Positions 1 through 64,000 of a DNA stretch of 64,000 bases are shown here, piece by piece. Position 1 is the stretch's first letter. Every line of letters begins with the position of its first letter. Below the pieces are notes generated by a model, which did not search any database, was not told the DNA's origin, and saw only the letters and a list, made by a program, of their open reading frames with translations. Both the position numbers and the translations under genes were made by a program. The stretch covers positions 232,226-296,225 of the forward strand of contig CAVTZY010000033.1 of NCBI GenBank assembly GCA_963739235.1. The letters are read 5' to 3'. The DNA is from Terriglobia bacterium (GTDB lineage: Bacteria > Acidobacteriota > UBA6911).

Positions 1-93
1 ACATCCCCCGCGCAGCAGCACAGCCGACCCGGTATTGATCCTATGAATATCGAAGGCCTTGCGCGCCTCTCTCACTTCTAAATATAAAGACCG

Positions 94-2036: not shown

Positions 2037-2040
<4 letters not shown>
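94..2040 (-). CDS. dinG: ATP-dependent DNA helicase, DinG/Rad3(XPD)-like
   Basis: 648-aa ORF. Walker A '[15 protein letters not shown]', DEAH box 'VVFDEAHEL', C-terminal helicase motif '[22 protein letters not shown]'. Its start overlaps the glyA stop (ATGA at 2037-2040). Confidence 0.85.
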
Positions 2041-3299
<1,259 letters not shown>

Positions 3300-10745: not shown

Positions 10746-10880
10746 GGTTCCCCCCAAAATCCCTGGATACGACGCGATGCGCGGATCCGGAACGCCGCCG
10801 ATCGCATATGAGATCTGAAATATCGCACTGTTTACAAAATGGAATCCACTACGGTGCCCCGATCAACTCGTCTATTTCTG

Positions 10881-11197
10881 TGCCGCCCTTTCAGGGCTCG
10901 AGATCTCCCGACCTCAACCCAGGGCTTACGCCCTGGGCTCTGCTGTCACGCCCTTTCAGGGCTAAGCATTTCACCACTGCGAAAACCCGAAGGGGCCAAG
11001 CATTTCACCCCTGCGAAAACCCCGAAGCATTTCACCCCTGCGAAAACCCCGAAGGGGTGGCGCAGCAAAGCCCAGGGCGTGAGCCCTGGGAACAGGGGAT
11101 CTAGCTGGCCAGAGCCCTGAAAGGGCGGCGCAGGGAACGCGCGATGAGAGAACAATATTTTCGTGCATCACTGGGCGCGCCCCGGCGCATGAGGGAT
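10881..11197. repeat. Family-B composite palindromic repeat with an internal tandem triplication
   Basis: Arms 'gccctttcagggc' and 'gccctgaaagggc', plus 'cccagggc..gccctggg' palindromes. Tandem units start at 10964, 10998 and 11025 ('aagcatttcacc(a/c)ctgcgaaaacccc'). Confidence 0.8.
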
Positions 11198-11226
11198 CGT
11201 TTCGAAACTCGACAGGCTCCGGCAGT

Positions 11227-12609: not shown

Positions 12610-12631
12610 AGCTGCCTATTTTGATCTTTCT

Positions 12632-14881: not shown

Positions 14882-15000
14882 TCGAGAGGTTCTCCTATCC
14901 GGTTAGGTAAAGCGCGGGCTCGCTCATGAAGGGGATCCCTGGCTGAATAACCAATTATATGACAACCTCTTTGGAAGCGCAAAGATGCAACCGATTTGCA

Positions 15001-15175
15001 CTGCGATTCAGACAGTAAAAGCTAACAGCAGCCACGAATGGCACGAATAACTGAGAGTTTCTTTGCTCAATGAACGACGCACCCGTCGCAAGAGGCTCTG
15101 CGTTGAAGGTTTGGCTGCGGCTATGCCGCTTCGTGCCATTCGTGGCCAGGTCTTTTCCCCCTGTCTGAATCGCAG
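15001..15175. repeat. Family-A inverted-repeat element, copy 3
   Basis: 'ctgcgattcagacagtaaaagc..gcagccacgaatggcacgaata' ... 'cttcgtgccattcgtggcc..ctgtctgaatcgcag'. Confidence 0.8.
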
Positions 15176-15246
15176 AATTCGTCAGATGGGGATTGACGCT
15201 CGCGCAGGAAAATATTAGATTCCCAGACTAATCCATAGGAGATCCA

Positions 15247-16209
15247 GTGAAAGTACTCATTACGGGTGGTGCAGGCTTTATCGGTTCTTATCTTTCGGAG
15301 GCGTATCTTGAGCGCGACCAGGAGGTTTATGTTATCGATGATCTCTCCACCGGCAGGCTGGAGAATATCAAACATCTTCTGAAAAATCCCAGCTTCCATT
15401 TCGTAAACGACACCATCCTCCACCGCGAGGTTATGCTCGAGTTGACGGGGATCTGCGATGTGGTCGTACACCTGGCTGCAGCCGTGGGGGTCAAGCTCAT
15501 CATCGACGAGCCGCTCAAATCCATCCATACCAACATCGCGGGTACGGAAATGGTCCTCGAACTGGCGAACAAGTTTCGCAAGAAGACCTTCCTGGCTTCG
15601 ACCTCCGAAGTTTATGGTCGGAATTCCAAAGTGCCCTTGTCTGAAGACGACGAGCGCATCTATGGCTCTACCGCGGTGGCGCGCTGGAGCTACGCTTCGA
15701 CCAAAGCCATGGATGAATTCCTGGCGCTGGCATATTACCGCAATAAACAGCTTCCTGTGATTGTGGCTCGTTTCTTCAATACCGTCGGTCCCCGCCAGAC
15801 CGGCCGCTACGGCATGGTCGTGCCGCGCTTCGTGGGGCAGGCGCTGCGCAACGAGCCGCTGACCATCTACGGTACCGGCGAGCAAACCCGTACCTTTACC
15901 TACGTAGGGGATGTGGTGCAGGGAGCGATCGCATTGATTGACGAGCCGCGCGCGGTGGGCGAAATCTTCAACATCGGTGGCGACGAGGAGATTTCCATCA
16001 ACGATCTGGCCAACCGCGTCAAGAGTCTGACCGGCAGCTCATCGCCGATTGAATATATTCCTTACGAGCGGGCCTACCAGGAAGGGTTCGAGGACATGGA
16101 ACGCCGCGTGCCCGATATCAGCAAACTCAAGAGAGTCGTGGGTTACAAAAACACCCATGACCTGGACTCCATGCTCGCTAAAATCATCGAGCACGAGCGC
16201 ACCCGCTGA
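15247..16209 (+). CDS. NAD-dependent sugar-nucleotide epimerase/dehydratase (extended SDR)
   Basis: Rossmann motif 'ITGGAGFIGS' and catalytic 'YASTK'. 320 aa. Confidence 0.85.
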   Translation: MKVLITGGAGFIGSYLSEAYLERDQEVYVIDDLSTGRLENIKHLLKNPSFHFVNDTILHREVMLELTGICDVVVHLAAAVGVKLIIDEPLKSIHTNIAGTEMVLELANKFRKKTFLASTSEVYGRNSKVPLSEDDERIYGSTAVARWSYASTKAMDEFLALAYYRNKQLPVIVARFFNTVGPRQTGRYGMVVPRFVGQALRNEPLTIYGTGEQTRTFTYVGDVVQGAIALIDEPRAVGEIFNIGGDEEISINDLANRVKSLTGSSSPIEYIPYERAYQEGFEDMERRVPDISKLKRVVGYKNTHDLDSMLAKIIEHERTR

Positions 16210-16345
16210 GATAATGGCGGACAAGAGATCATGCCGGTTTCCCAATCGTTCGGGAAGGGAGTGCGTGATGCGTGGGCAAGCGGGCCGTCCGTTTTCTCAT
16301 TTTGCGCGGCAACGGGATTGACCGGATCTGAAACCGATTATTGCA

Positions 16346-17254
16346 ATGCAGAACATCTCTTGTTATGTCTGCGGCAGCAGGAACACGGGCGATTTCTGTG
16401 CGGCCCGCGATCGGCATGGAAGCGGAATCTGGCAGATTGAGCGCTGCCGGGATTGCAGTTTCGGATGGACCTCGCCGGCACTTGCAGAAGACCAGATCGC
16501 CTCCTACTACCCGACCGCCTATCTTGGGGACACCCGCAAGACCCTGGACGACTTTTTTTCCGGCCGGCTCGCCCACAGCCGATCCTGGCGCGGCGAGTTG
16601 GAGAAAGCCCGGCTGGTGGAACGCTATATCGGTCGCGGCAAAATCCTGGATGTCGGCTGCGGCGACGGCAAGTTCTTATGGGCCCTCGACCCGCAGCGCT
16701 GGGACAGAAGCGGGATCGAGACCTCGCGGGATACAATTGCCATTGTCACTCAACGCATGCCTTCGCTCCATCTCGTGGCAGGCGACATCTATGCCGCAAG
16801 CCTCGTAGCAGCATCCTATGAAGCCATTACCTTCTGGCACGTCCTAGAGCACCTGCCTGACCCAAGGAAGGTACTGAACCGTGTGTTCAACCTCCTGAGG
16901 CCCGGCGGGTGGCTCTTTATCTCCTTGCCCAATCTGGAGAGCATGCAAGCACACTTGTTCCGGGCGTATTGGTATCCGTTCGGAGATGTTCCCCGCCACA
17001 TTTGCCATTTTTCCAGGAAGTCGCTGGATTTGCTGCTGATAGAAGCAGGCATGACGGTTCGAGTGCATCGTCTCTTCTCCCCGCACGTCAATTTCCATTC
17101 ACTGAAGCACAGCCTGCTCGAGTGGTCGGAAAAAGTTCTGGGCAGCCGCATCCCCTACTATATGCTGAAGCCGTTGCTTTTCGCGTTTCCTCTCCTTGAA
17201 CGCTGCACGGGGAAATACGGCATCCTCACCGCCATTGCACAAAAACCGAAATAG
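16346..17254 (+). CDS. class I SAM-dependent methyltransferase with an N-terminal Cys-rich segment
   Basis: 'CYVCGS...CRDCSF' Zn-ribbon-like pairs and SAM motif I 'ILDVGCGDGKF'. Confidence 0.75.
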   Translation: MQNISCYVCGSRNTGDFCAARDRHGSGIWQIERCRDCSFGWTSPALAEDQIASYYPTAYLGDTRKTLDDFFSGRLAHSRSWRGELEKARLVERYIGRGKILDVGCGDGKFLWALDPQRWDRSGIETSRDTIAIVTQRMPSLHLVAGDIYAASLVAASYEAITFWHVLEHLPDPRKVLNRVFNLLRPGGWLFISLPNLESMQAHLFRAYWYPFGDVPRHICHFSRKSLDLLLIEAGMTVRVHRLFSPHVNFHSLKHSLLEWSEKVLGSRIPYYMLKPLLFAFPLLERCTGKYGILTAIAQKPK

Positions 17255-31826: not shown

Positions 31827-32032
31827 TGTCCCGCCCTTTCAGGGCTAAGCATTGCACGACCTTGAAAACCCCGAAGGGGTGGCGCAGCAAAGCCCAGGGC
31901 GTGAGCCCTGGGAACAGGGAACGGAGCGAAAAGAGCCCTGAAAGGGCGGCACAGGAAACCTGCGGCGAGAGCGCAACATTTTCATGCGTCAGGGGTGCGC
32001 CCCAGGCGCATGGAGGACTGCTCCGAAAATAA
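31827..32032. repeat. Family-B palindromic repeat, copy 2
   Basis: 'cccgccctttcagggctaagcattgcac..aaaccccgaaggggtggcgcagcaaagcccagggcgtgagccctggg..agccctgaaagggcgg'. Near-identical blocks to 10881-11197. Confidence 0.8.
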
Positions 32033-36892: not shown

Positions 36893-37305
36893 CCATGCGC
36901 CGGGGCGCACCCAGTGACGCATGAAAAGCACAGCCGTTGCGCGAAGTGCCTTGGAGTGCGGCGGCATGACGCCGCTTTGTCAGGCTTCAAAGCGGCGTCA
37001 TCCCGCCGCACTCCAAAGGCTCCGCCTATTTTCGGAGCAGTCCTTCATGCGCCTAGGGCACACCCATGACGCCCGAAAATGTTGCGCTCTCGCCGCAGGT
37101 TTCCTGTGCCGCCCTTTCAGGGCTCTTACCGCCCGATTCCCGCTTCCCAGGGCTCACGCCCTAGGCTCTGCTGCTCCACCCCTTTGGGGTTTTCAAGGTC
37201 GTGCAATGCTTAGTCCTGAAAGGGCGGGACAGCAAAGCCCAGGGCGTGAGCCCTGGGTAGAGAACCGGAGATCGCAAGCCCTGAAAGGGCGGCACAGAAC
37301 ACACC
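36893..37305. repeat. Family-B palindromic repeat, copy 3 (inverted), plus a 29-bp-stem hairpin module
   Basis: Contains 'gccctttcagggc' and 'gccctgaaagggc' blocks. A near-perfect hairpin spans 36951-37016 ('ttggagtgcggcggcatgacgccgctttg' / 'caaagcggcgtcatcccgccgcactccaa'). Confidence 0.8.
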
Positions 37306-45953: not shown

Positions 45954-46043
45954 GGAGAGGTGGCCGAGTGGTTGAAGGCGCACGCTTGGAAAGCGTGTGT
46001 AGGGGAAACCTTACCGGGGGTTCGAATCCCTCCCTCTCCGCCA
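45954..46043 (+). tRNA. tRNA-Ser (anticodon GGA)
   Basis: Acceptor 'GGAGAGG' / 'CCTCTCC'. Anticodon stem 'CACGC' / 'GCGTG' with loop 'TTGGAAA'. Long variable arm, T-loop 'GGTTCGAATCC', encoded CCA. Confidence 0.92.
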
Positions 46044-46115
46044 CACTTTTTGTTTTCAATTATTTATCCCATTGTGATACCATAGGTGATACCGAAAAAG
46101 GAGTTTCGGTCACCC

Positions 46116-47273
46116 ATGAATCGACACGTCAATCTCACCAAACGCATTCGAACTCCGAAGGGATTGCGCTTCTGTCCCATAGTCGTCTCCGCTAACGGCC
46201 GAGTCAAGCCGGATTACGTGGTTGTTGGTGACCACGAAGAACGGCATCCGGAGGGATCCTATTATCTGGAATGGTACGATGGCAGCAAGCGAACCCGCCT
46301 ATCGGTTGGCCAAGATCCAGCGACTGCGGCCGCCCGCCGGCATCAACAGGAGCAAATTCTCGCCAGCAGGGCGGCTGGCATTCCACTAGCCATCGAAGGC
46401 AAGATCGAAGGCGTCCTTCTGGGCGATGCCGTTGCAATCTATCTTGACGAAATCCGAAAAACCAAAAAACACAAGACCTGGGCCGCCTATAAGACGGCGC
46501 TCTCCTACTTCCTGGATTCCTGTTCGAAGGCCCGCGTGACGGATATCGAGCGCGCGGACCTGCTTCAGTTCAGTGCCTTCCTTCGCGACACCAAAAAGCT
46601 GGAGCCCCGGACCGTATACAACAAATTCGAAAGCGTAATTTCATTTCTGCGGACCAGCGGCGTACGCGGCCTCGCAGGCAAGAACGATTGGCCGCGCTAC
46701 GTCGAGGATGAGCCGGAGATTTACGAGCGCGCGGATCTGAAAAAGTTCTTCGCTGCCTGCACCGAACACGAGCGGCTGTGGTTTGAGTTTTTCCTGATGA
46801 CCGGCCTGCGGGAGCAGGAGGTCATGCACTGCACCTGGTCTGAAATCAATCTCGGCCGCGGCGTAGTGACGGTGCGCTACAAACCGGAGTTTGGCTTTTC
46901 GCCGAAAGCCTACAAGGGGCGCGAGGTGCCCATCCCGGACAAGCTCGTCCGATCGCTCAAGAAGCGGAAGGCAGCCGTAGAGACAAGCACGTGTCCATTG
47001 TTGTTTCCGACGTCGGGAGGCAGGCCCAAGCTGGATTTCCTCGACGCGTGCAAATCGATTGCGACCCGGGCCAAGCTGAATCCTGATGGCTTTTATTTGC
47101 ACAAATTCCGTGCCACTTTCGCTACTTGGGCCCTGTGGAGCGGCGTCGACCTGCGCACGGTACAGCAGTGGATGGGCCACAGCGACCTGGAGAGCACCCT
47201 GCGTTATCTCAAACCCAATCGCGGCGACGCAGTCCGGGACAAGGTAAACACCATGTTCGAGGATTGGGAATAG
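46116..47273 (+). CDS. int: tyrosine-type integrase (phage/ICE integrase family)
   Basis: 'HKFRATFATWALWSGVDLRTVQQWMGHSDLESTLRYL' catalytic H-x-x-R...Y region. Starts 73 nt downstream of the tRNA-Ser. Confidence 0.88.
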   Translation: MNRHVNLTKRIRTPKGLRFCPIVVSANGRVKPDYVVVGDHEERHPEGSYYLEWYDGSKRTRLSVGQDPATAAARRHQQEQILASRAAGIPLAIEGKIEGVLLGDAVAIYLDEIRKTKKHKTWAAYKTALSYFLDSCSKARVTDIERADLLQFSAFLRDTKKLEPRTVYNKFESVISFLRTSGVRGLAGKNDWPRYVEDEPEIYERADLKKFFAACTEHERLWFEFFLMTGLREQEVMHCTWSEINLGRGVVTVRYKPEFGFSPKAYKGREVPIPDKLVRSLKKRKAAVETSTCPLLFPTSGGRPKLDFLDACKSIATRAKLNPDGFYLHKFRATFATWALWSGVDLRTVQQWMGHSDLESTLRYLKPNRGDAVRDKVNTMFEDWE

Positions 47274-48398: not shown

Positions 48399-50314
48399 CA
48401 CTAAGCGCCTGCGCAAAAATAACTTCACATTCTGCGGAGCAACTATCCCAAAGGTCGTTTACGCATCTTGATCGTCTATGGGCATCAAATGGCCATTTAT
48501 CAATAAATTTATGAGATGGTTGGGAATCATGGGTGTGGTATAATTCGTCCTGGTAGACTCTTTTCAGGAGGAACTATACCACATGGTATTTGATCCGAAT
48601 GTCCTTCGATCCTTCCTGCATCAAGAGAGGATTGCCACGCTCCCGGAGCTGAAGCAAGCTTTGGGAAGCATGGCTACCATGACCGTGTTTCGAAAGCTCA
48701 AGGCGTTAGGCTACCGCACGAGCTATTCGCACCGCGGGAGATACTACACGCTGGTGAACATTCCCCGGTTCGACGAGCGAGGTCTCTGGACTTGCCGCGC
48801 CGTATGGTTTTCGCGCGACGGCAGCCTGCTCACCACCGCCCGGCGGTTTGTGAACGATTCCGATGCTGGGCTTACCGCCGGGGAATTGCAGGCGCTACTG
48901 AATGTCGAGGTCAAGGAATCGCTTCTGGTGCTGTACCGTCGAGGGCAAATTGCCCGCGAGGAAATCGGCGGCGTCCTTGTGCACTTTTCTACTGAGCCTG
49001 GGGTACGGCGCGAGCAATGGCTGCGCCGCCAGAGTCCGGCGGGTGCGCTGGAGGTGGGCGACTCGGCGGCGGGCGAAGGGCTGGCGCCGGAAATGAAGGC
49101 CGCGATCATTCTGTTTTTCAGCTTGCTGGATGAGAAACAGAGGCGGGTGTATGCGGGCTTGGAGGCCCAGAAGCTCGGATACGGCGGCGATATCAAGATT
49201 GCGGACTTTCTGGGGTTGGACGTGCACACAGTGTCGCGTGGGCGCCGGGAGCTCTTTGGAGACCGTGTCCAGCGGGAAAGGATTCGCCGTCAGGGCGGTG
49301 GGCGCCCGGCTGCGGAAAAAAAACGCCGGAAGTGCTCGCATGCATTTCGGACCTGCTCAAACACGAAACGGCTGGCGATCCGATGAAGGGTCTGAAGTGG
49401 ACCCGAAGGACAACCAGGAAAATCGCTCGAGAACTGCGTCGGCTGCAGATCCGTGTTAGTGCCAACACGGTGCGCCGGTTGTTGAAGCGGATGGGGTTCT
49501 CCTTGCGCGTGAACCACAAGAGACTGGAGTCAGGGAACAAGAATCCGCCGCCCCGCCGGGTACGAAACCAGCAGTTTTTATACATCGGCCGGAAAAGGGA
49601 GGAGTTCTCCTCCAACGGAAAGCCTGTCATCAGCGTGGACGCGAAAAAGAAGGAGATGGTCGGGGCCTTCAAGAATCCCGGGGTGTCGTGGCAACGCGAA
49701 CCGCAGATCGTCAACGACCACGACTTCCGCAGCGATGCCGAGGGGATGGCGATTCCCTATGGCATCTACGATACGCGGACCAATCATGGTTTCGTGGTGG
49801 TCGGGACCAGCACCGAAACGCCCGCCTTCGCAGTGGACGCAATCGTTTCCTGGTGGAAAAGTCGGGGCGGCAGTATCTATCCTGATGCAGATGAACTCCT
49901 GATCTTGGCAGACTGTGGCGGCGGCAACAGCGCCCGTGCGCGTGGATGGAAGTATCACCTGCAACACCGGTTCTGCAATCCTTACGGGCTGAAGGTGACC
50001 GTCTGTCATTATCCGCCTGGCGCATCAAAATGGAATCCGATCGAGCACCGCCTGTTTTCCCAGATTAGCAAGAACTGGGCAGGCAAGCCGCTGGAAAGCT
50101 ATGAGACTGTGATCAAGTATATTCACTCGACTACTACCTCGGGCGGATTGAAGGTCAACGCCTGGTTGTCACTGAAGCGTTATGAAAAGGGCGAAGAGAT
50201 CTCCAACGTAGAGATGAAGCGGCTCATGCTTGCCGGCCACAAGACGCTACCGGCATGGAATTACACGTTGACGCCGAGCAGAATGTGAAGTTATTTTTGC
50301 GCAGGCGCTAAGTG
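48399..50314 (+). mobile_element. ISAzo13-family insertion sequence (1,916 bp)
   Basis: 34-bp terminal inverted repeats with 1 mismatch. They are 48399-48432 'cactaagcgcctgcgcaaaaataacttcacattc' and 50281-50314 'gaatgtgaagttatttttgcgcaggcgctaagtg', and they enclose the transposase. Confidence 0.85.
48583..50288 (+). CDS. ISAzo13-family DDE transposase, in two overlapping ORFs joined by a -1 shift at the A8 run (49316-49323)
   Basis: ORF1 ends '...RRQGGGRPAAEKK'. The -1 frame continues 'TPEVLACISDLLKHETAGDPMKGLKWTRRTTRKIA...', with 'VISVDAKKKE', 'LILADCGGGN' and 'KWNPIEHRLFS' typical of this family. Confidence 0.8.
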
Positions 50315-51330
50315 ATCAATCTCGGGAACTTCAATTTCACGTCTCAACTCATGCCTCCAAATACTAAGAGCCCTGGGAGACCCCAAAACTTACCTCGAGG
50401 ACACAAGTCTTTTTCTGCAGCTGTGGTGCTGAGTGACGAGGAGAAAGCTAGCTCGAGAACAGTTGCGGGCATCCGCGTGTTTTTATTCTCTTATCTGCCG
50501 CGGCTTCTGTGGACCACCGCGAGCCGTTGGCAGTAGAGAAACCTGCCGCGAAACTTCTGGATATATTAGTTGCAGTTTTTCGAACTTTGTAACATCGACC
50601 TCAAAATATTTTTTCCACGCACAATCCGTGACTCCCCTGGATTGCTGCAGAGTAGCCCGATTTGGTAGCAACTACGCTTGGGATCTGTCGGCCATTCGTC
50701 CAGGGAATCCTACCACCGGGCTAAGATTCACGATTTATGATCCTGGCTGCGGCAACCAAGAGCGACTCTGCTTGCCTCGTTGATCCCATGAGAAACCGAG
50801 ATGAAATCCAGGGCTTGGGATGAACTACTTGTCCATCAGGGCCATGCTACAACTCGCTCTAATCGGGTCCACCCATTCGGCGAGTCGGCTGACGTTTCGC
50901 CGCTGGATCGTTTCTGCGCCATCGGCCCTCTTCTGTGCGACTCGCTTTGTGCCCGCAGGTATTTCCGCTTCCGGATCCAGAATTCCGACAGCGCAATTGC
51001 TCCTCCGTCGATGTAACAGAAGGAAAGCACAGGAGGGCGAAACCAGATTCCATATCCACTTAATTATTCGTCTGATGAGCCGCCCCAATAATAGATCTTC
51101 CCCCCTGGTGTACCGTCCAGCGCCGCATAGTCTTCACGACACTGTCCCCAATGGATTTCCGACAAACTGAAAATTTCGAGTAGGCGATTTCCTTTGTTTT
51201 GCGTTCTTGTGGTTAGGCCCCGATGGCCACTTGAAAATCCCCCATTTGTGGCCGGGTCAAAATCCCCCAGGCGACAGCAGGAGTATAACCTACCAACAAT
51301 CCGTATAGAGCCTCCAAGCTCATTCCTTTT

Positions 51331-52106
51331 TCATCCAGAAACTTTTTGTCGGTTTTCGGTCAGCCGGATGGACGCCTCCTTGAGACGGTAGCTCCTACCT
51401 TCGAACTTGAGCAGATGGCCGCGGTGAAGGAGTCGGTCCTGAATGGCCGACGAAGCGGCGTTGTCGCCGAGGAGTTTCCCCAATCCTCCAGGGGACGATT
51501 GGAAGTAATCAGGCTGCTTTTTCTCGAGGTGTATCGATTCAGAATAATCTCGAGTAAATCGTCGGCAGCCTGTTCCGGGACGTTCTTGCGCAGAAACAAA
51601 TCGTCGATGACCAACAGATCGCTTTCGGAGAAGAGTTTGGTCACCTTTTTTCTCCGCTTAAGTTGAGCGGATTCGAAGAGGTCTTCGAAAAAGGCATGGG
51701 CTTCGCGATACACGACTTTGTAGCCGGTCTGAATGGCGGCATGCGCCACTGTCTTTGCAATATGGCTTTTCCCGGTTCCGGGCGAGCCGATCAGCAGAGC
51801 ATCAGCGCCGTCCCGGATAAATTTGCCGCTGACCAGTTCGTAGATTTCCTTTTTGGGCAGCTTCGGATTGAAGCCCCAGTCAAATTCGGTCAAAGTGGGC
51901 CGGTCCGGGAGGCCGGAGGCTTTGAAGCGGGTTTCCACGAGGCGCGAGTTTCGCCAGTCCATTTCGTCCTGCACGAGGCAGGCAAACACCTCTACGAAAG
52001 AAGCACCCTGGTTGGCCTGAACGAGTCGGGTTTCCAGCGTGGCGCTCATGCCATGCAGGCGAACCGTTTTGAGATTTCTCTGTAATTCTGCTAACGGCAT
52101 TTCCAT
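51331..52106 (-). pseudogene. istB: IS21-family helper ATPase IstB, frameshifted near its C-terminus (about 51475-51481)
   Basis: Walker A 'GSPGTGKSHIA' and 'LLVIDDL'. After 'TSNRPLEDWG' the listed frame reads nonsense. The alternate frame gives the canonical 'KLLGDNAASSAIQDRLLHRGHLLKFEGRSYRLKEA', ending at 51331. Confidence 0.85.
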
Positions 52107-52144
52107 TAATTGGGCTCCTTATCTTCTTTTTCATCCTGTGGTTT

Positions 52145-54877
52145 TTAAAAACAGCCTTGCACGCGCAAGAGCTGAAGTTGTTCTACCGACATGTCGGCCG
52201 GGTCCTGGACCGAATCCGAGATCAGGTCCCCGGAGAGGCCCCGGTCCCAGTCAAACACGCTCACCTCGAAGTGGTTCTGCCGCAGCCGCTCGAACGCCTG
52301 ACAGGCGCCCTTTCGACCGGCCTCGTCCCGGTCCAGAAACAAAATGATTCGTGGAAACCCGATCCGGGACCGAATCCACGCCAACCGCTCGATCTGTTCC
52401 GCGGAGATGTGGGCTCCCATCAAGGCACCGACATTACAACAGCCCGCTTCCACGAGCTTGGCCACATCAAAAAAGCCCTCCACGAGAACCAGACCGAATG
52501 TCCTCGCCTGGCGGCCGGCTTCTGGATCCAGCAGGAGTTGATCCTGGTTGTAGATTTCCAGCCCTTTTCGGAACGGATAACTCCAGTATTTTCCATCCGA
52601 GTTTTCTTGTTCCGGCATCAGGGCCCGTCCGGTGTGGCTCAGGATGATCGACTGAAGACCCTGGCCATTCTCTTTCACGCCCCGGATTTGAAACACCACC
52701 CGGGAATGCAGGGGAGAGCCCGGTCCTCGGTTCGCTCTCGGGGGCAAAAAGCCGCAGCCCAGATAACGACAGGTGGCGGCAGATATGCCGCGACGGCTCA
52801 ATTCGGGATGATCGGAGTGAAGATAACGGCGCAGGTCGATCTCGATGTCGCGATTGGCAGGAGTCGTACACGTCGGGACGCTGACCGGACTTGGTTGCGG
52901 TTTTGGGTCAGGAGCAGGCGGTGTTTGCGGCATTGCCGTGCAGATTCCTTCCCCGACCATCCACTCGGCTACTTCGAACATGGTCATCTCACGGCCCTGC
53001 CGCTGCAGCACCTCCCGGCAGAACTGGATGATGCCGCCGCCCTTGCCGCTGCTGAAATCCTTGTAGACATTGGCCGACAGACTGACGTGCATCGAGGCCT
53101 GCTTTTCCTGTGTAAACGGAGATCTGAGCCAGATCTCATCATCTCGGCTGCGGCGCTGGTGGTCTACGCTGAGTTGAAACACCTCGATCACCTTCCGCCA
53201 GCTTGCCTGCTGCCAGACCTCGCGCAGTTGCTGCCGGTCAATGACCCGCGATATGGAAGCAATCGTCTTTTGGGGAATCGGCGCCGCCGGGAGTTCCGCC
53301 TGGGCGGCGTGTTGATTCCAAAAAGCGGCGTAGTCTTCCCCCGGGCGAATCAAGGCGTGCTTTTGCGTGAGACGGTCGGATTCTTCGGCTTTCCGTTCCC
53401 CGGCTTCGGCCGCCATGCTCTCCACGATCCGCCGCAAGGCTTTGAAACTTCTCAGCCCGTTGCGCTTTACCACTTCCGCCGCTTTCTCCACGTGGCAGGC
53501 CGCGTAATGTCGAACCAGATTGACCAGGCCGTACATGCGGCGTTGACCGCTGCGGCCTTCTTCCTTGAACCATGTCTCGCACAGATCGAAGGTGTGCGGA
53601 CCGATGCATTCGGCCTGTGCCAGCAAGCGGTCTGTTTCCCGGGATGGATTGAAGATCCGATCCGCGGGGTCCATCATCAGGGAACCAGGCCGCCTGCTCC
53701 TGGGATGGCGGCGGATAACCTCCATCCGGACCGGATCGAGTATCTTGACTTGATCCTCGTAGATCCGTACCACCACCTTGCTGCCGAGCGGTGCCGGACT
53801 GGCGGCATAGTAGGATTGGCCGATCTGAGTCGTCCCGTCATCGTAGACCGTCCGGGTTTCCTGCTGAAAATAGCGGAACGGCATCAGCGGCAACGGCTGC
53901 AGATAGGGTTTCTCTTCCTGGAACATCTCCTTGACCTGCCGCTTGGCCCGGCCATGGATTCGCGGCGATGCCCACCGATCCTCCCAATGCATCAACCATT
54001 CGTTCTGGGCCTCGATGCTTTCGAATTTCCGTCCCTTCAAGGCCGTGTCCTGCGTGTATTTCACCGCATTCTCCACGGTCCCTTTTCGGTCCGAATCGCC
54101 CACTCTCGCCGGATCTGCCACTACCTCGTAATGATTCAACATCGCGGCATACAGCGGATTGAGATCCGGTTCATAGATGTCCGGCTTGATCACGCCTTCC
54201 TTGAGGTTGTCCAATGTCACGTATTGCGAACAGCCCGCAAAATAGCGGAACGCTTCCTCGTGCAGCCGGCACCAGATTTCCTTGCTCGAATTCCAAACCA
54301 CCTTCCGAAAGGCCCGCCCCGAGTACTTCAAGGTCATGATGAACAGGCGCGGCCGCCGGAATTTTCCGCTGCTGTGAAGAGTTGGAGCCCCCTGCCCGTA
54401 GTCCACCTGGGCTTCTTCTCCCATCAGGAATTCCAGCCGGTCATATTGCTCGGGGTCCTTCCGTTTGAGGAGCCGCACAAACCGCTTCACGCTGTTGTAG
54501 CGGTGATTGAAACCGAACAGTTCTACCAGATCCTGGTAGATGGCCATGGCATTGCGGCCCCCTCTGACCTGCTCCTCGATCCACTCCCGGTGCGCTTCAC
54601 AGGCCGAGCGGACATGCTTGGGCATTTTGGGTTCAGGAGCCGGTGGCCGGGGTGGGGGATTTTGATTCAATGGTATCTCAGAGCCGGTGGCCACCTCCTG
54701 TGGGGTGGGGGATTGTGAATCCCCACTTTCTTGTACCTCGTCCGAATCGTACGATTGGCCATACCGGCGGATGGTTTTTCGATCGATCCCGGTCTTTCGC
54801 TGGATCTCGCGTTGACTTATCTCCTTGTGCAGCAATGTCTTGATCGTGGTTTGCAAAGACAGCTTCAAAACGTTCAT
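52145..54877 (-). CDS. istA: IS21-family transposase IstA fused to a C-terminal DnaG-like primase/Toprim module
   Basis: N-terminal HTH 'ISQREIQRKTGIDRKTIRRY' and DDE core up to '...LTQKHALIRPGEDY' (aa about 1-545 of the 924-aa ORF). A Cys-less CHC2-finger-like 'LRSPFTQEKQASMHVSLSANVYKDFSSGKGGGIIQF' follows. Primase motifs are 'VVFQIRG..SHTGRAL', 'KYWSYP' and 'GLEIYNQD'. Toprim is 'LVLVEGFFDV' plus 'LFLDRDEAGRKG'. Confidence 0.8.
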   Translation of the reverse strand: MNVLKLSLQTTIKTLLHKEISQREIQRKTGIDRKTIRRYGQSYDSDEVQESGDSQSPTPQEVATGSEIPLNQNPPPRPPAPEPKMPKHVRSACEAHREWIEEQVRGGRNAMAIYQDLVELFGFNHRYNSVKRFVRLLKRKDPEQYDRLEFLMGEEAQVDYGQGAPTLHSSGKFRRPRLFIMTLKYSGRAFRKVVWNSSKEIWCRLHEEAFRYFAGCSQYVTLDNLKEGVIKPDIYEPDLNPLYAAMLNHYEVVADPARVGDSDRKGTVENAVKYTQDTALKGRKFESIEAQNEWLMHWEDRWASPRIHGRAKRQVKEMFQEEKPYLQPLPLMPFRYFQQETRTVYDDGTTQIGQSYYAASPAPLGSKVVVRIYEDQVKILDPVRMEVIRRHPRSRRPGSLMMDPADRIFNPSRETDRLLAQAECIGPHTFDLCETWFKEEGRSGQRRMYGLVNLVRHYAACHVEKAAEVVKRNGLRSFKALRRIVESMAAEAGERKAEESDRLTQKHALIRPGEDYAAFWNQHAAQAELPAAPIPQKTIASISRVIDRQQLREVWQQASWRKVIEVFQLSVDHQRRSRDDEIWLRSPFTQEKQASMHVSLSANVYKDFSSGKGGGIIQFCREVLQRQGREMTMFEVAEWMVGEGICTAMPQTPPAPDPKPQPSPVSVPTCTTPANRDIEIDLRRYLHSDHPELSRRGISAATCRYLGCGFLPPRANRGPGSPLHSRVVFQIRGVKENGQGLQSIILSHTGRALMPEQENSDGKYWSYPFRKGLEIYNQDQLLLDPEAGRQARTFGLVLVEGFFDVAKLVEAGCCNVGALMGAHISAEQIERLAWIRSRIGFPRIILFLDRDEAGRKGACQAFERLRQNHFEVSVFDWDRGLSGDLISDSVQDPADMSVEQLQLLRVQGCF

Positions 54878-55069
54878 CCTCTCTCTCCCATTTGTGAACG
54901 GACCAATGGGAGCATGCACGTTCTGTCGCCGTCTGCAGCGATGTTTATCGCGAAATCTGTGCAGCTAAGTGGGGGATTTTCAAGTGGCCACAAGTGGGGG
55001 ATTTTGGGTGGCCATCAGGGTTAGGGGAACATTTTGCAGCTACTCATCTTGATCGGAGGCGAGGGCTCT

Positions 55070-56197: not shown

Positions 56198-56496
56198 GAT
56201 AGTACGCCATAACATATTCTAGCTATTGATAATCAGGCATTGTGCGCAATTCACGAAATTCACGTATTTGGCGAAATTCGCGCAGTTGGCGCAGTACGCG
56301 CTAGACAAATAAAGAATGCATGTTAGAAAAATCTCATCATGCTTGGCCGAGTACGAGAAGACGCATTGGCTTCTAACGCATTCTCAGCCAGAGCCGTAGA
56401 TTGCTGATCTGAGTTCTTCATGAAATCGCTGGCTGCTGTCGGCATATATCGCGTTCATTGACTTGTACCTCCTTGGAACGTTACCGGAGAAAACGT

Positions 56497-57042
56497 ATGA
56501 ACCTCAAAAGCATTTATCTCAAATCCAAGGGCACGCTTTGGCCGCTGGTTGCCCTTCTTTTGCTGTTTACCATTGCGTTGGCGCTGGCTCAGACGCCGGA
56601 CAAAAAGGCGACACCGATGATCACCATCGATGGTTCGCAGACTCCGGACCGGATCCCGGACTGGATCCTGTGGAGCGAAGTATTCAAGACCGTGTCATTG
56701 CTATCGGACAAATTCGCGACGAAGGGCGATGACATTTGGGTGCAGAAGCTCCAACTCTCCAGGGAGCAGGCTAACCAACTCATCCAGCATGCCGGGACAC
56801 ATCGCGCCATGAATTCCGCAAAAAATGTGGAAGCGAGAAATCTCAAAGCCTCAACGAAAGAGAGCAAGGAATCGCTGCGCATCAAGCTGAAACAAGCCCA
56901 AATGAACAAGGAAGTCCAGATTCTCGAACTTCGCGATGCGCTTCGTGCGCGGATAGGTGAGGACGCATTCCAAAGGCTCCAATCTTACGCGAAGCTGAAT
57001 ATTGCGCCCACGATCAAGGTCGGCGCCATGGTCAGAAAATGA
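56497..57042 (+). CDS. secreted hypothetical protein upstream of the RHS gene
   Basis: Signal 'MNLKSIYLKSKGTLWPLVALLLLFTIALALAQ'. The remainder is helical and charged. No family recognised. Confidence 0.55.
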   Translation: MNLKSIYLKSKGTLWPLVALLLLFTIALALAQTPDKKATPMITIDGSQTPDRIPDWILWSEVFKTVSLLSDKFATKGDDIWVQKLQLSREQANQLIQHAGTHRAMNSAKNVEARNLKASTKESKESLRIKLKQAQMNKEVQILELRDALRARIGEDAFQRLQSYAKLNIAPTIKVGAMVRK

Positions 57043-57125
57043 GCGGGACCAGCCACGAGCATCACTGAACTGGAAACCAGCGGAAGGAGCATTAGTCCTA
57101 GCGTGAAATCCGGAGGAAATTGCTT

Positions 57126-60100
57126 ATGAAGCCGAAGATCTCGATTGGGGCGAATTCAGCAAGAATGATTTGGGCCGTTGGCCTAGGTTTTCTCTGCCTT
57201 TTGTCATTCATGCAAAGGGCATCCTATCCGAACGAAATCGTGGTTGAAGGAAAATACCATTTTCGGTCCGCGATTTGGGAGCAGTACGGAGCCGTCGTCG
57301 CCACAAGCAGCACTGACATTGACTACGATGCGCAGTACCAAAGCGCGAATATTGATCTGCTACTCGACCGGCCCGATGGTCCCGATGATGAGCAGCATGT
57401 TTGTAACGGCAGCTGCGAGGGCGTGAACATTGTAATCGTCGATCCTCTTATGTTTGGCACCTGGAATCTCCATGCGGATCATTGGATTGGCGATGAGTGC
57501 GGCGGGGATATGTGGATTTATGGAACTACTTCCGCGACCTTCACCAGAGCACAAACATCCATCAATTACTTCTATGCCAGCCCAAGCCATTATCTATACC
57601 CCGGATCGACCACGCTGTACTGGTCGACGACCAACGGATCAAACGCCTGGATCAATGGGACGGCCGTAGCTCTTTCCGGCAGTATGGTGGTCAGCCCTGG
57701 GATGACGACAACATATACGCTCTCCGTGTACGGCACCCTGAATACTGCTACCGCCACTGCTGCGGTCGGGGTCGACAAGCCTCTGTTAATGAATGGATAC
57801 CGCTATTCCGTGCGCCATGAAAAGGGCACGCCGCCGTTCTTCCCCTATACGCAGGTCAATCAGGAATCTGTAAACGTCGCCAACGGCAACCTCTTCTTTA
57901 CGGTGCCGCTCTTGAGCCGCCCGGGACGCAACGGCCTGGGTGTTGATCTGAAGCTTGCCTACAACTCCAAGCTCTGGGATTTCTATACTTGGAACGCCGC
58001 GATCTACGCCACCTTAGTTGAGGATAGTTCCTGGGTGGGCACCGGTTGGACACTGCTGGTCGGGAGAGTCATTGACGACTCGTCCAACGGGCGCTACTAC
58101 GTCACCCTTTCCGATGGATCCAACCACGAAATGACCTATTACGGAGGAGCATGGCGATCGATGGATTCAACCTACATGATTTACGATCCCGTCGTCCACA
58201 AACTGACTCTAAAGGGCGGCATAAACCTTCGTTTCGATTACCAGGATTCGGTGCGCACTAACATGCGGTTCGCCACGCGAGTCCAGGACACCAACGGCAA
58301 TTATCTCGAAATCGCCTATGGCAGTGGCGGAGGGCGCATCAGCACAATCCAGGATACGCTCGGGAACACCTACACCTTTTTGCTGAATTCCCAGGGAAGG
58401 CTGGCGTACATATCCTATTTTAACACCAACGACACAACCCAGCCGACGAGCACGATCGCTCTCGAGTATGATAGCCAGGCGATCTCTTTCGGCCCGGAGG
58501 CAGTGACTGCCTCCATGCCGGCGCAGGAATTCCTCGCGCATGTGACGTACATCAGCGGCGTCCGTTATAATCTCGTGTACGGAGGCAGCGGCGAACTCAG
58601 CGAAATAACCTACCCCACATTCGGGACCAGCCGCTATTTTTATAGCACCTACAACGTGTTGGAGCGCTTTCTCAACCAGACGGTCCCGGATCACTATGTC
58701 AGCAGTCACGACACGGGGGAGGGCACTGGAATATGGAGTTGGAACAACAGCCCGAATGGCCTGGCGGCGGCAGTTGGCGCGTCCATAACGGACCCGGGCA
58801 ATCAAAACAACTGGTACTACATCGCTGTCTTTATGGGCAAAGCAGGCGCAAGCTGGGCCGATGGATTTGTAACGAATCGAGTGACCGAAGACCTCTACGC
58901 TTACTACCGCCTGAAACTCGAATCCCAGCAAGACTGGACACAGGACGATACCCAGATCTCGACCATCAAGAATCCCAGGGTGGCCTGGACTCAGCACGTA
59001 GCCACAGGTGGGGCTTTACGGCCGGATGCGCAAACGATCAGCCGGAAGGAGTTCACCTACGCCCCTGCCGCTGACTACAGCGGGAATGTTAAGGAGATCA
59101 GAGAGTACGCTTGGAACGGCAGTCTGCGGCGCAAATCGACATTTAACTACCTCCACGAATCCAATGGCGCCTATGTTCCCTTGAACATCCTCGACAGGGC
59201 GACCGACGCGCTTATCTATGATGGCTCCAACCACCTGATCTCCAAAAGCCTGACCGCGTACGATTCAGTCTCGCCGCTTTATGCTGCTGCGGGAGCCATT
59301 CGCCATGATTCGTCTTTCGATACGAATTATGTGGCCAGAGGACTGCCTACGAGCATTACCCGATGGCACAATATCGCTCAGAACCAGTCTGTTGTGTCTT
59401 CAGTCAGATATGACGAATGCGGAAATGCGCGAGAGGCGACGGATCCCCGGTCTAACGTGACCTTCACGGAGTTCTGGCTTTCGTCGGCCGATAACGCTTA
59501 CGCGTTTCTGCTCCGGGTAACCAACGCCAAGGGGCACGTTGCCAGCGCATCCTTCAGTTACAAGAGCGGCGCGGTGCTCAGCCAAACGGATACAAACGGA
59601 AAAGGCACATACACGACGTATGACAGCCTCGACCGCCCAACGGCAATCAACAAGACGGACGGGCCAAGCAAGGCCATTACATACTACGAGGATCCCGAAT
59701 ACCAGACACCCCCTTATGCAATGATCTGGGATTACCTGACAGCCAATACCTTTTCCACGCATTTCGCCGTGCTCGACAACATGGGGCGCCTGCAGCAACA
59801 GATTCTGAGTGATACCTCGGGTGGCGACATTCAACGGGAACTGACTTATAACCCGCGCGGCGACCTTTCGCAGGTATCCGCTCCGCATCGGGCTGGCGCC
59901 ATCGCGTTTCAAACCAGCTATACTTACCTGCAGCCGTCCAGTCAAGCCGTTACCTATGCTGATGGATCGACGGATTGTATCAGTCGAGCACCGGCACTGA
60001 CCCAGGTAATGAGACTCCAAAAACGGAACACGCAACTTTTGGTACCAGGAAGACGGCAAGATCAATACCGTGCAACTGGAGGATCCGGATACTGGGGTAG

Positions 60101-63042
60101 TTAATGTGGGGACAAGCTATATCTACGATGCCATGGGCAGATTGGCCACGATCACCCAAGGGGTTCAGGTTCGGTCCTTTGCCTATGACGATCTGGGCCG
60201 GCTCTTGACGGAGACTCATCCGGAAACCGGCACGACCAGTTACGGCTATGACGCCAACGGAAACATGCTCAGCAGGACGGACGCGCGCGGAACCGTGACG
60301 ACGTTCGCCTACGATGAGCTCAACCGCGTGACGCAGAAGAGCTATAGCGACGGAACCCCTTCGGTGAGCTACTACTATGATTCTCAGCCGTCCGGAAGCC
60401 CGATTGCAGCGATCAATCCGGTGGGCCGGCTGACCAAGGTGACAAGAACCGTATCGGGAGTGACGGCGAGCACCTATTACAGCTACTGCAGCTGCTCCGC
60501 GATCACCCAGGAGGCGACGGTAATCAATGACGGCACGGCGAAAACCTACATAACGAGCTACAGCTATAACCTGGCCGGGCAGTTGACGTCGATAACCTAC
60601 CCAAATGGGAAGGTTGTGAGCTACACGCTCGACGATGCGGGACGGCAGATCAATGCATCGTCGACCTACAACGGCCAACCCTTTGATTATATCTACTCGG
60701 CGTACTATGGGGGGCCGGCGGGCCAGATTACCCGGCTGCAGTACCCGATCAGGTATCCTTACCCTAACGGGCAGCGAGTGGAGGCGAACTACACATATGC
60801 GCCGCAGTCAGGGCAGCTGATACATATGGAGTCCTACCAGCTGAGCCTGAACTACGGTTATGTATCCGGGCGAATTTACGACATTACGGATCTTCTCAAT
60901 CAGAACGAAAGTCAGCACTTCGAGTACGACCGCTGGTGGCGGCTAACGGGCTATTGGAAGTCTCCGTCCCGAGGCTACAGCGGCGCCAAGATGCATTTCA
61001 GCTACGACCTCTACAACAACCTCACCGGCATGGACGCCTATGGCGTGCCCTGGACATTCAACGTCAACGTCGCCACCAACCGCGTCTCCAGCAGAACTAT
61101 TTGGAGTTCAAACGATTCCTTTACCTATGATTCTGCCGGTAACATGACGAGCATGGGCACCTTTGACGCCGAAAATCGCCTAATTCAGACTGCGCAAGGT
61201 GCCGGTTACCTGTACGACGGCAACGGACGGCGCTTCCGCACGAACGATGGAAACGTGGTAAACTATGTCTATTCCTACACGGGCCAGCTGCTGATGGAGG
61301 ACAGGGTTTCCGAATCGTTGTCGAGTAATTACATCTACTTCAATGGGCAGATGGTGGCGATTCATCAGCAGGACGAGACCATTCGCTTCTTGATCAAGGA
61401 TCATCTCGGGTCCACGCGCAAGGTGATTAGCGTCCCACTGTTCCCATATGAAACTTGGCAGTACAACTGGTACAACTGGTCCCTGACCAAGAGCTACGAT
61501 TATGAACCTTTCGGGGGATCGTTGTCCTCGAGCGGGCCGACCCGACAACGGTTTCAGGGGAAGGATCGGAGCGGCGGCTTGGATTATTACGGCGCTAGAT
61601 TCTACGACAGCAGAAACATCCAGGCTCCTCCTTACGGCACCATGCGCTGGATCTCGGCCGATTCCTTGACGTCTCGCATCTACGATCCCCCATCCCTGAA
61701 CAAATACACCTACGTCAGAAACGACCCCGTCAACCTCATCGACCCGGATGGAAGAAACGTAGCAGCTCCAAATGGCTACGCTCCGCCGGGTTTGTTGTTT
61801 GAGTTTGACTGGGAAATATTTAGTCCCACTGCCGTCATATCGGGCGGGGAAGGTGAGATTACCGGCTTGAATATTGGTCTATCCTCGGAACCAGGCGACG
61901 ATATTGGTAGCCCCGATATTCTGGGGACCGTGTTCAACGTTCATGAGTTCAAGCGGGACGACGGTTCGACGGGCAAGGTCATGAGCGTCATACTGGCCGA
62001 CGAAACCGGGACCGTCAGGACATCGTTCTGGGGCAACGCCGTCGAACTCGCGAAGAAGTTTTCAATCGGCGACATCGTTTCCATCCACAACGCATACACC
62101 CGCGCGGGATTGGCGAGCAAGCCGGAGGTCCAAATCGGGCGCTCCACTAGCATCGACATAAATCCGGCTGGCATCTCCGTCGGCGAGCTGAAGCCGAGCA
62201 GGATAAAGATCGGCGAGCTCGAGGTCGGCATGGACGCGCTCGAGGTGGTCGGCAGGGTGATAGAGGTATCGAGGGCGAGGGAGTTCACGCGCACCGACGG
62301 CAGCAAGGGAAAGGTCGCGACCCTCGGGATAGGCGACGAGACGGGGACGACGCGGCTCTCGCTCTGGCAGGATGCCGTCGATAAAGCTGAAAAAATAAAA
62401 GTCGGGGACATCATCAAAGCGACGAATTGCTACGGCGCCCTCGGATTGTACGGCCAGCCCGAGCTGCACCTTGGGAGGCAGGGGAGCATCGATGTGAACC
62501 CGTCGATGGAGGGAGAACTGCCGCGGGCCGACGTGCTGTCGATGGCGATCGCCGCCCCGGAGCGCATAGAAATAGGGGCGCTCGAGAAGGAGGGCCTCAA
62601 GGTCCAGGTGCGCGGCACGATAGTCAGGGTCTTTCAGAGGAGGCCGCTCTTCGATGTCTGCCCGCTGTGCGGCCGCAGCCTCGGCAGCGTCGACCACAGC
62701 CTCCTGTGCGAGGAGTGCGGCAAAGTGGTCACGCCCGAGCATCGGGTCGTCGTGAGCTTCCTGGTCGAGGATGGCACCGGAAACATCAGGGCCGTGCTCT
62801 TCGGAAAGGTCGCGGAGAAATTGCTCGGCATGGACGCGCAGCAGGTGTTCGGACTCTTCAAACAGACCCCCGACGTCATCGAGCTCTACAACAAGCTCAA
62901 CATATTGGGCAAGGAGGTCACGATCACCGGGACCACGCGCTACGACAAGTACTTCAACCAGCTCGAGATCAGGGCGAGCGATGTCGAGATCCCGGAGCCG
63001 AAACAGGAGGCGCGCGCGCTGTTGGAAAAAATAAAAGCATGA
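57126..63042 (+). pseudogene. RHS/YD-repeat protein (about 1,970 aa) split into two ORFs by a +1 shift at or near the A5 run 60019-60023
   Basis: GGAGGA RBS before the ATG at 57126 and an N-terminal signal or TM segment. Many YD repeats ('YTYDSLDRP', 'YIYDAMGRL', 'FAYDDLGRL', 'YGYDANGNM'). RHS core end 'YYGARFYDS...NKYTYVRNDPVNLIDPDG' (DPDG at 61741-61752). Frame 1 reads 'SKNGTRNFWYQEDGKINTVQLEDPDTG' from 60016. Confidence 0.85.
61915..63039 (+). other. archaeal-type replication protein A (RPA)-like module in frame with the RHS core: three OB folds, the third with a Zn ribbon
   Basis: OB signatures 'FKRDDGSTGKVMSVILADETGTVRTSFWGNAV' and 'FTRTDGSKGKVATLGIGDETGTTRLSLWQDAV'. Zn ribbon 'CPLCGRSLGSVDHSLLCEECG' (62659-62718). 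Third OB 'FLVEDGTGNIRAVLFGKVAE'. Confidence 0.75.
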
Positions 63043-63067
63043 ATGACGACATTAGGACGTGGAACCG

Positions 63068-64000
63068 ATGGAAAGAAAAACGCAATCGATCGAAAGTCTG
63101 CCGGGCGTCGGAGAGGCGACCGCGGATAAGCTTCGTGAAGCCGGTTACGGAACTGTCGAGTCGCTCGCCGTCGTGACGGTAGAGGAACTCTGCGAAGTCG
63201 CGGAGATCGGAGAAAGCCAAGCCAAAAAAATCATCGCGGCTGCCAAAAAAGCTGCTGACATAGGCGAGTTTGTAACTGCTGATCAAGTTCTCGAGCGCCG
63301 GAAGACAGTCGGCTGGATAACCACGGGCAGCAAGCAGCTGGACACGTTGCTCGGCGGCGGGGTTGAGACCCGGGCGGTGACGGAAGCTTTTGGAGAGTTC
63401 GGTGCCGGCAAATCTCAGCTCGGCCATCAGCTTTGCGTGAACTGTGCAGCTGCCTCCGGAGCGGGGCGGCTTGAACGGCAGGGCGATATTCATAGACACG
63501 GAAAACACGTTCAGACCAGAGCGCATCATAAGTATGGCGGGTGGAGTCGATTTGGATTCGAACGAGGTGCTGAAAAATATTTTGGTCGCGCGGTCCTACA
63601 ACACGGACCAGCAACTCTTGATAGCTGAAAAGGCCGAGGACATCATCGAGAAGGAAAACGTGCGACTGCTGGTGATCGACAGTTTGACCTCCCATTTCAG
63701 GGCCGAGTTCACCGGGAGGGAGACGCTCGCCGAACGGCAGCAGAAACTCGCCAGGCACCTCTTGGTCCTGCACCGCATAGCGGATCTAAAGGACGTCGCC
63801 ATCTACGTCACGAACCAGGTGCAGGCGCGCCCAGACATGTTTTTCGGTGACCCGACTAGGCCAATAGGCGGCCACGTCTTGGCACACTCCGCAACGACCC
63901 GCATCTACATGCGGAAATCCAAGGGCGGGCGGCGAATAGCGCGCATAGTCGATAGCCCGAGCCTGCCCGAGGGAGAATCCATTTTCAACATAACAGAGAG
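63068..64000 (+). pseudogene. radA: archaeal/eukaryotic-type RadA (Rad51-like) recombinase, frameshifted at about 63443 and running off the window
   Basis: N-terminal HhH '[27 protein letters not shown]' and Walker A '[17 protein letters not shown]'. One extra nt at about 63443. The next frame reads '[28 protein letters not shown]...[15 protein letters not shown]...YVTNQV...[17 protein letters not shown]', open to position 64000. Confidence 0.85.

Follow-up and report, generated by a model that had tools for sequence, protein, structure and literature searches.

The window analysed here, a 64,000-nucleotide stretch of a 302,806-bp metagenomic contig, changes its taxonomic origin inside a reading frame. 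Everything upstream of position 61932 is Acidobacteriota, and the last 2,069 bases (61932-64000; 2.07 kb) are an archaeal stretch with the second half of an RPA gene followed by radA. We infer that the nature of this join is artificial rather than biological: a chimera of assembly or library preparation, to which we give a probability of about 65%, is a more likely explanation than a bacterium with archaeal recombination genes of its own. The near-identity to living archaea, a break in the middle of a gene and of a domain, and the metagenomic source all favour a chimera. A sequence-only reading of the same DNA had raised the prospect of a bacterial genome carrying Rad51-type genes; with a mid-gene start at 61932, a near-match in free-living Hadarchaeota and a contig from a metagenome, such a genome cannot be regarded as established.

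The gene that closes the window (63068 to 64000, plus strand) was identified by translation and profile searches as an archaeal radA with an HhH domain, the Walker A motif GEFGAGKS and the Walker B motif LLVIDS. Its ATG at 63068 lies 25 nt past the TGA (63040-63042) of the 990-codon RHS/RPA open reading frame on the same strand, and the coordinates thereby confirm the spacing that had been noticed earlier. The reading begins in frame 2, degenerates, and resumes only in frame 0 (...LLVIDS...SIFNITE), in which it continues to the window end. When one base is deleted in 'GTGAA[C]TGTGCAG' (63442/63443) a continuous RadA of 310 residues results, which the end of the window truncates 5 codons short of its stop.

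This repaired protein belongs without difficulty to the archaeal family. It matches the Pfam families PF08423 (Rad51, 300 bits) and PF14520 (HHH_5, 54 bits, residues 9-61), and it exceeds the cut-offs of the NCBIfam equivalogs for archaeal RadA, NF003301 (487 bits, cut-off 259) and TIGR02236 (480 bits, cut-off 361). The bacterial families are far from reached, with 51 bits for TIGR02012 recA (cut-off 325) and 21 bits for TIGR00416 sms (cut-off 403), and the sequence-only reading was thus right in calling the gene archaeal-type RadA and neither RecA nor RadA/Sms. Among solved structures the top match is the RadA of Pyrococcus furiosus (1pzn, 433 bits). The protein comparison that had been proposed for the frame-corrected RadA, run against 5.8 billion clustered proteins, gave a closest relative of 94% identity, and the named matches are all Hadarchaeota (Hadarchaeum, Hodarchaeaceae, Hadarchaeales); the RadA proteins of uncultured Hadarchaeota are 94-96% identical to that of the window. 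With archaeal RadA in general (TIGR02236 / PRK04301; 1pzn from Pyrococcus furiosus, 2bke from Sulfolobus) it shares the N-terminal HhH domain and the Rad51-type ATPase core. It differs in a frame that one extra base breaks after Walker A, so that the reading frame is not uninterrupted, and in its physical linkage to Acidobacteriota DNA in this contig. The window radA is an ordinary Hadarchaeota gene and tells nothing new about recombinases.

The preceding part of the archaeal stretch (61932 to 63042, plus strand) encodes the C-terminal 369 codons of RPA: the third OB fold minus its first strand, the fourth OB fold, the Zn-ribbon C-terminal domain and the native stop. It matches PF01336, PF08646, the NCBIfam replication factor A models and the RPA of Pyrococcus abyssi (8aaj). 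The full set of OB folds that accompanies the Zn-ribbon in a complete RPA is absent, as only these last 369 codons are present. At the protein level the RPA part is 96% identical to the RPA of L004 (CAZLQN010000031.1, a Hadarchaeota MAG), a protein whose full length is about 720-790 residues. Over the archaeal stretch, DNA identity to the window amounts to 95.2% for L004, 92.6% for the Hadarchaeota contigs L001 and L002, and 92.4% for L072 (Ga0619418_09803592); a further Hadarchaeia MAG contig, L003 (JBGPSS010000115.1), is 98.9% identical to the last 263 nt of the window. Identities of 92.4-98.9% imply either the same species as these living archaea or a very recent event.

The order of the two genes is likewise that of an archaeal chromosome. 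In the contigs with the best RadA match, a 791-residue RPA is followed by radA and then by genes for a HAD hydrolase, a phosphoesterase, CDC48, NurA and HerA, and the adjacency of RPA and radA is found in L001, L002 and L004. The earlier proposal that RPA and RadA form one co-linear piece of an archaeal chromosome is therefore well supported, with the same order in these three contigs at 92.6-95.2% DNA identity. Compared with the Hadarchaeota locus (Ga0315282_10000055, CAZLQN010000031.1, JBGPSS010000115.1), with which it has gene order and spacer region in common at 92.6-98.9% DNA identity, the window lacks the first ~421 RPA codons and all DNA upstream of RPA. It also carries an insertion of one base in radA and a deletion of 4 nt in the spacer (63043 to 63067, plus strand; gaps at 63054/63055), the latter specific to the window relative to L001 and L004. 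A concatenated protein query of the C-terminal part of RadA, the HAD hydrolase and the phosphoesterase returned only RadA proteins that contain inteins.

One relative of the block deserves a separate remark. In L072, a JGI contig of 1.85 kb, the RPA gene has an in-frame TAG at about 245-250 (AAG to TAG). As a consequence, the gene caller reports a 353-residue 'RPA' that starts just past the breakpoint of the window, a potentially misleading coincidence. We considered this protein (P0125) as a natural short RPA and rejected it, since its contig has the in-frame TAG and a normal RPA upstream of it.

By blastn and MAFFT alignment the breakpoint between bacterial and archaeal DNA lies at 61931/61932, with the reading frame kept across it. 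The homology to L001, L002, L004 and L072 begins at 61932/61933 in each case, and those contigs carry on upstream into RPA. In the 791 codons of RPA the break corresponds to about codon 422 and lies within the third OB fold, and a cut in the middle of an OB fold is without functional logic. Searches for the same junction in other data returned nothing: a junction 35-mer had 0 matches in JGI metagenome contigs, a search of these contigs with the linker peptide found no relatives, and no junction-spanning protein appeared among the 5.8 billion clustered proteins, for which the listing comprises cluster representatives only. No adapter sequence is visible by eye at the join. We also examined how far the archaeal DNA might extend past the window: seven archaeal genes are located 1.5-10 kb downstream of radA in L001, and their clusters at 90% identity include no member from the 302,806-bp contig. 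The archaeal continuation beyond radA thus seems short, which is compatible with either a terminal tip or a true insertion, but not with a fusion of two long segments.

On the bacterial side of the breakpoint lies a gene of the RHS/YD-repeat type, whose relatives all come from Acidobacteriota MAGs. Its 5' reading frame (57126 to 60104, plus strand) encodes 992 residues from the ATG and is out of frame past 60014. The intact RHS proteins of two such relatives, L058 and L057, with 1,737-1,757 residues, align over 57126 to 61755 with a single frame change at 60008-60031; in tblastn they cover 57126-60008 in frame 3. A third relative, L071, pins down the lesion. Over window positions 57481-60481 it shows 0 mismatches apart from an inserted A at 60014 (plus strand, 'GTAATGAG[A]CTCC'), which splits the window gene in two open reading frames; the intact L071 protein (P0199) reads ...LTQVMSSKNGTRNFWYQEDG where the window is frameshifted. 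Apart from the indels of the archaeal block, this is the only one compared with an independent copy. An inserted A amid 3 kb of otherwise 100% identical sequence also resembles a local consensus error, and a consensus error is most likely what it is.

The 3' part of the RHS core (60031 to 61755, plus strand, by tblastn) ends in PVNLIDPDGR, and PF05593 (RHS_repeat) and TIGR03696 (Rhs_assc_core) match at residues 478-561 of the RHS/RPA reading frame. In Rhs effectors the motif PxxxxDPxGL separates the shell from the toxin (PMC8636562), and the window motif fits it except for R in place of L. It is followed by a bacterial pre-toxin linker of 59 residues (NVAAPNGYAPPGLLFEFDWEIF...EPGDDIGSPDILGTV; 61756 to 61931, plus strand), whose homology to the L057 linker reaches to 61914. 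We also considered this linker as diverged RPA ('DILGTV' resembling 'VDIIGRV'), and discarded the idea at a local score of 27 against a shuffle mean of 27.2. The toxin domain expected behind the linker is absent, and the linker runs in frame into the RPA half. In the RHS relatives a toxin region of about 150-220 residues is found there, and then an unrelated small open reading frame.

The window gene thus shares the YD-repeat shell, the core-end motif and a variable linker with RHS polymorphic toxin loci (L057, L058 and L071 of Acidobacteriota; T6SS Rhs effectors, PMC8636562), and like those of L057, L058 and L071 it sits in a recombination-prone island. It departs from them in having neither a toxin domain nor an immunity gene downstream, in a C-terminus of 369 residues of archaeal RPA, and in its frameshift. 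Size sets it apart as well: the capacity of Rhs shells stays below 25 kDa and the toxins known so far have 9-20 kDa (PMC8636562), whereas the window extension past the cleavage motif counts 428 residues and 46.1 kDa, compared with 205-225 residues in the relatives. That radA occupies the place of an RHS immunity gene, to which the sequence-only reading had attached meaning, loses its significance here, as the position is set by the native archaeal order of RPA and radA.

L071 (contig_93935 of ENA assembly ERZ25039515) is also of interest in its own right. Its positions 10001-16585 correspond to window 56482-61755, with a 3-kb 5' part that is 100% identical and a last third of the RHS gene that is only ~75-80% identical and leads into a different, HExxH metallopeptidase-like C-terminus. 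Downstream of its RHS gene lie orphan core-end fragments and an open reading frame with an SLT domain. The locus is a clear case of RHS module shuffling.

The RHS gene belongs to a region from 46 to 64 kb that is rich in mobile elements. It opens with a tRNA-Ser(GGA) gene (45954-46043, plus strand; ARAGORN, Rfam) and a tyrosine integrase directly behind it (46086-47273, plus strand; Pfam Phage_integrase), and includes an ISAzo13-type IS and an IS21-like element. The bacterial part of the window also encodes bacterial-type ProRS, XerC/D, a TolC-like OEP, a sigma-54 activator, TRAP transporters and SHMT, and for more than 25 of the housekeeping genes in 1-46 kb the Pfam matches cover the full domain length. 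Frameshifts are not spread uniformly along the window, a distribution expected of a globally error-prone assembly: those in IstB, the RHS gene and radA are all within the island.

From where does this contig originate? Exact look-ups place the proteins of the window, among them the product of the RHS 5' reading frame (P0198), on a single contig of 302,806 bp present in NCBI and ENA. Identical copies of the window IS are present on four contigs, named in the form contig_NNNN, of ENA assembly ERZ25039515. As both these identical copies and the identical 5' part of the RHS gene are found there, the window probably belongs to this assembly; it would be a slice of one of its metagenome contigs, whose names look Flye-style. 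Over window positions 1-3134, a Logan contig from run ERR10755944 agrees at 99.97%, and it reaches 1.9 kb beyond the left end of the window. Among the GTDB representative genomes, exact patterns for the 3' end of radA, for the expected radA stop with the spacer behind it and for the IS matched either nothing or archaeal MAGs only. Metagenome assemblers are known to produce chimeric contigs (PMC11261854).

A second case may be present at the very same locus. L003, assembled with MEGAHIT at k=141, starts with an unrelated GC-rich head (positions 1-141) and then enters radA at the equivalent of window 63738/63739. We tested these first 141 nt as Acidobacteriota sequence from this window and dismissed that origin, as there was no match. 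The head, with a length of exactly the assembler's k, probably marks a second chimeric join, and this public contig illustrates that such joins enter databases easily.

The defects close to the join allow a closer look at its history. L001, L004 and L072 are gap-free against each other over the 2.07 kb, compared to two indels in the window, namely the 4-nt deletion in the spacer between RPA and radA and the insertion of one base in radA (63442/63443, plus strand; a gap against all three). The correction of one nucleotide near 63443 that had been suggested from the sequence is thereby verified against three archaeal relatives, and the observation as such lies well outside the reach of chance. 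At this site the window reads AAC-T-GTG, L072 reads AAC GTT, and L004 and L001 read AAT GTG, so that both alleles of a synonymous C/T site stand side by side. Two alleles written in succession are typical of consensus building or polishing with mixed strains and read as such an artefact, and a consensus error is most likely the cause of the radA frameshift. It has also been weighed whether the shift might be independent of the join, either as a programmed +1 frameshift or as a real pseudogene at the strain level in the archaeon. The extra base does lie outside any homopolymer, and the in-frame stop in the RPA gene of L072, a JGI contig, documents that damaged copies of the locus circulate in assemblies. 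However, RadA is a core recombination gene, and its conserved motif VN-VQLPPE.GGL is uninterrupted in L001, L004, L072 and over 100 homologues, which makes either reading very unlikely.

Apart from the indels, the archaeal stretch has changed little. Over the RPA part and RadA there are 7 amino-acid changes unique to the window, all of them conservative, and the block accordingly resembles a working archaeal locus save for one base. Among the four sequences compared, unique sites number 9 in the window as against 23, 45 and 92 in its relatives. Its unique codon changes divide into 2 synonymous and 6 non-synonymous ones, as opposed to 17:2 in L004 (Fisher p=0.002). In a living lineage unique changes are expected to be more numerous and mostly synonymous. 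With few and mostly non-synonymous changes and two indels, the terminal branch of the window therefore does not resemble that of a living lineage; the pattern is what a few random errors, or else a short spell of neutral decay, would leave. The block was also considered as a mosaic of L004-like and L072-like strains, an idea that is not established, since a simple tree explains the interleaved sites equally well.

Taken together, how can these observations be explained? In the favoured scenario of a chimera, a Hadarchaeota piece consisting of the second half of RPA, its stop, the spacer and radA would have become attached to an Acidobacteriota contig while the library of a long-read metagenome was prepared or its reads were assembled. 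The in-frame fusion of RHS and RPA and the position of radA in the place of an immunity gene would then be accidents of where the join fell. Consensus-type defects near the join, a junction that is absent elsewhere and the precedent of chimeric metagenome contigs all favour this scenario. As in contigs that combine two genomes, the taxonomic origin of the window DNA changes abruptly from one base to the next, within a gene of the donor, local consensus defects are found near the join, and the community can be expected to contain both organisms; L003 with its unrelated 141-nt head inside the same radA is similar. Chimeras that arise in the assembly graph usually form at a shared repeat, an rRNA gene or an IS, whereas the window join lies at no such repeat, and a chimera would consequently have to stem from a chimeric read or from an artefact of ligation. 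Other features count against a chimera as well. Reading frame and strand agree across the join, for which the odds are 1 in 6 by chance, and the join falls in a tRNA-linked, IS-rich island at the boundary of RHS linker and toxin, a natural hot spot for foreign DNA. The absence from the 302,806-bp contig of any member of the archaeal downstream-gene clusters speaks against a long archaeal continuation, and the lack of a visible adapter is to be listed on the same side. Finally, the lesions are concentrated in the island, and the start of the window is 99.97% identical to an independent Logan contig; errors are hence non-uniform, and the lesions could represent real pseudogenisation.

These very features lend some weight to a genuine and very recent transfer, in which illegitimate recombination would have brought a Hadarchaeota fragment into an Acidobacteriota RHS locus. 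The captured DNA would comprise the 3' half of RPA and radA, perhaps with one or two more genes, and would have replaced the module of toxin and immunity gene. Its cargo would have been non-functional on arrival and would now be decaying, as reflected in the extra bases of radA and the RHS gene and in relaxed constraint. The insertion site beside tRNA-Ser in an island rich in integrase and IS genes suits such an event, being exactly the pre-toxin linker at which RHS C-terminal modules are swapped, and related RHS loci of the same assembly carry orphan core-end and toxin cassettes that point to active recombination. Frameshifts cluster in the island and the housekeeping genes are clean, the 6 non-synonymous to 2 synonymous unique changes plus two indels are as expected without selection, and there is no sign that the contig goes on with the next archaeal genes. 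Nevertheless, with extant archaea 95-99% identical at the nucleotide level, the transfer between domains would have to be very recent, and such events are rare. The sister lineages have branches 7-9 times as long as that of the window; a neutral relic should have accumulated no fewer changes at synonymous sites than they did. In addition, the extra base at a polymorphic C/T site resembles a consensus artefact, and the searches of other datasets did not recover the junction. On balance we consider a capture the less likely explanation, though one of appreciable probability.

Far less can be said for a functional RHS effector whose shell would deliver an archaeal ssDNA-binding RPA fragment to rival cells as a toxin, with RadA as a protective or partner protein. 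The in-frame fusion does retain the PxxxxDPxG cleavage motif and the linker, and a downstream gene follows on the same strand at 25 nt. But both the RHS gene and radA are frameshifted, the 428-residue extension exceeds what shells hold and what toxins measure (PMC8636562), and the RPA piece begins inside an OB fold. Moreover, the adjacency of RPA and radA was inherited from the donor and not built by selection, and no second example was found among the 5.8 billion clustered proteins, listed as cluster representatives. All this renders a working effector extremely improbable.

The distinction between chimera and capture matters for the use of these data. If the join is an artefact, a public 302-kb Acidobacteriota contig includes ~2 kb from Hadarchaeota and would give rise to erroneous claims that bacteria possess archaeal RadA and RPA or an "RHS-RPA toxin". 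If it is real, it offers a rare snapshot of DNA capture from archaea to bacteria at a polymorphic-toxin hot spot, observed within roughly 1% divergence of the event, and implies that the sites of RHS C-terminal exchange can trap arbitrary foreign DNA.

The bacterial remainder of the window holds several minor observations. The ISAzo13-family IS (48400-50312) consists of a 267-residue open reading frame overlapping one for a DDE transposase of 301-318 residues, and at least four further copies occur in ERZ25039515, three of them 100% identical. Relative to L058, the IS21-like element is inserted at 51216-55022. Its open reading frame at 52148-54877 (minus strand) encodes an IstA-type transposase fused to a CHC2 zinc-finger/Toprim primase of 910 residues in total, a protein also present on three other contigs. 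The accompanying IstB gene (51363-52106, minus strand) is frameshifted near 51.45 kb, where it reads '...EDWGN' and then 'SSATT' for 'GKLLGDNAAS...'. Between the two elements, at 50433-51391 (plus strand), lie open reading frames of 117, 122 and 87 codons in three frames, for which a Pfam search gave no match; they may represent a gene broken by frameshifts.

In the 46 kb with the housekeeping genes we detected one lesion only, an in-frame TGA at ~12,470 (minus strand). The affected gene (11230-12600, minus strand) codes for an NtrC-type sigma-54-dependent response regulator, and the stop falls in the receiver domain ('ECLACIS*KEYALVLLD'). The window also contains five copies of the Rfam motif Acido-Lenti-1 RNA with 41-51 bits (cut-off 37), a taxonomic hint for Acidobacteriota. 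They are located at 10918-10963 (plus strand), 11045-11090 (minus), 31867-31912 (minus), 37146-37191 (plus) and 37212-37257 (minus), and at two of the sites they form close pairs on opposite strands.
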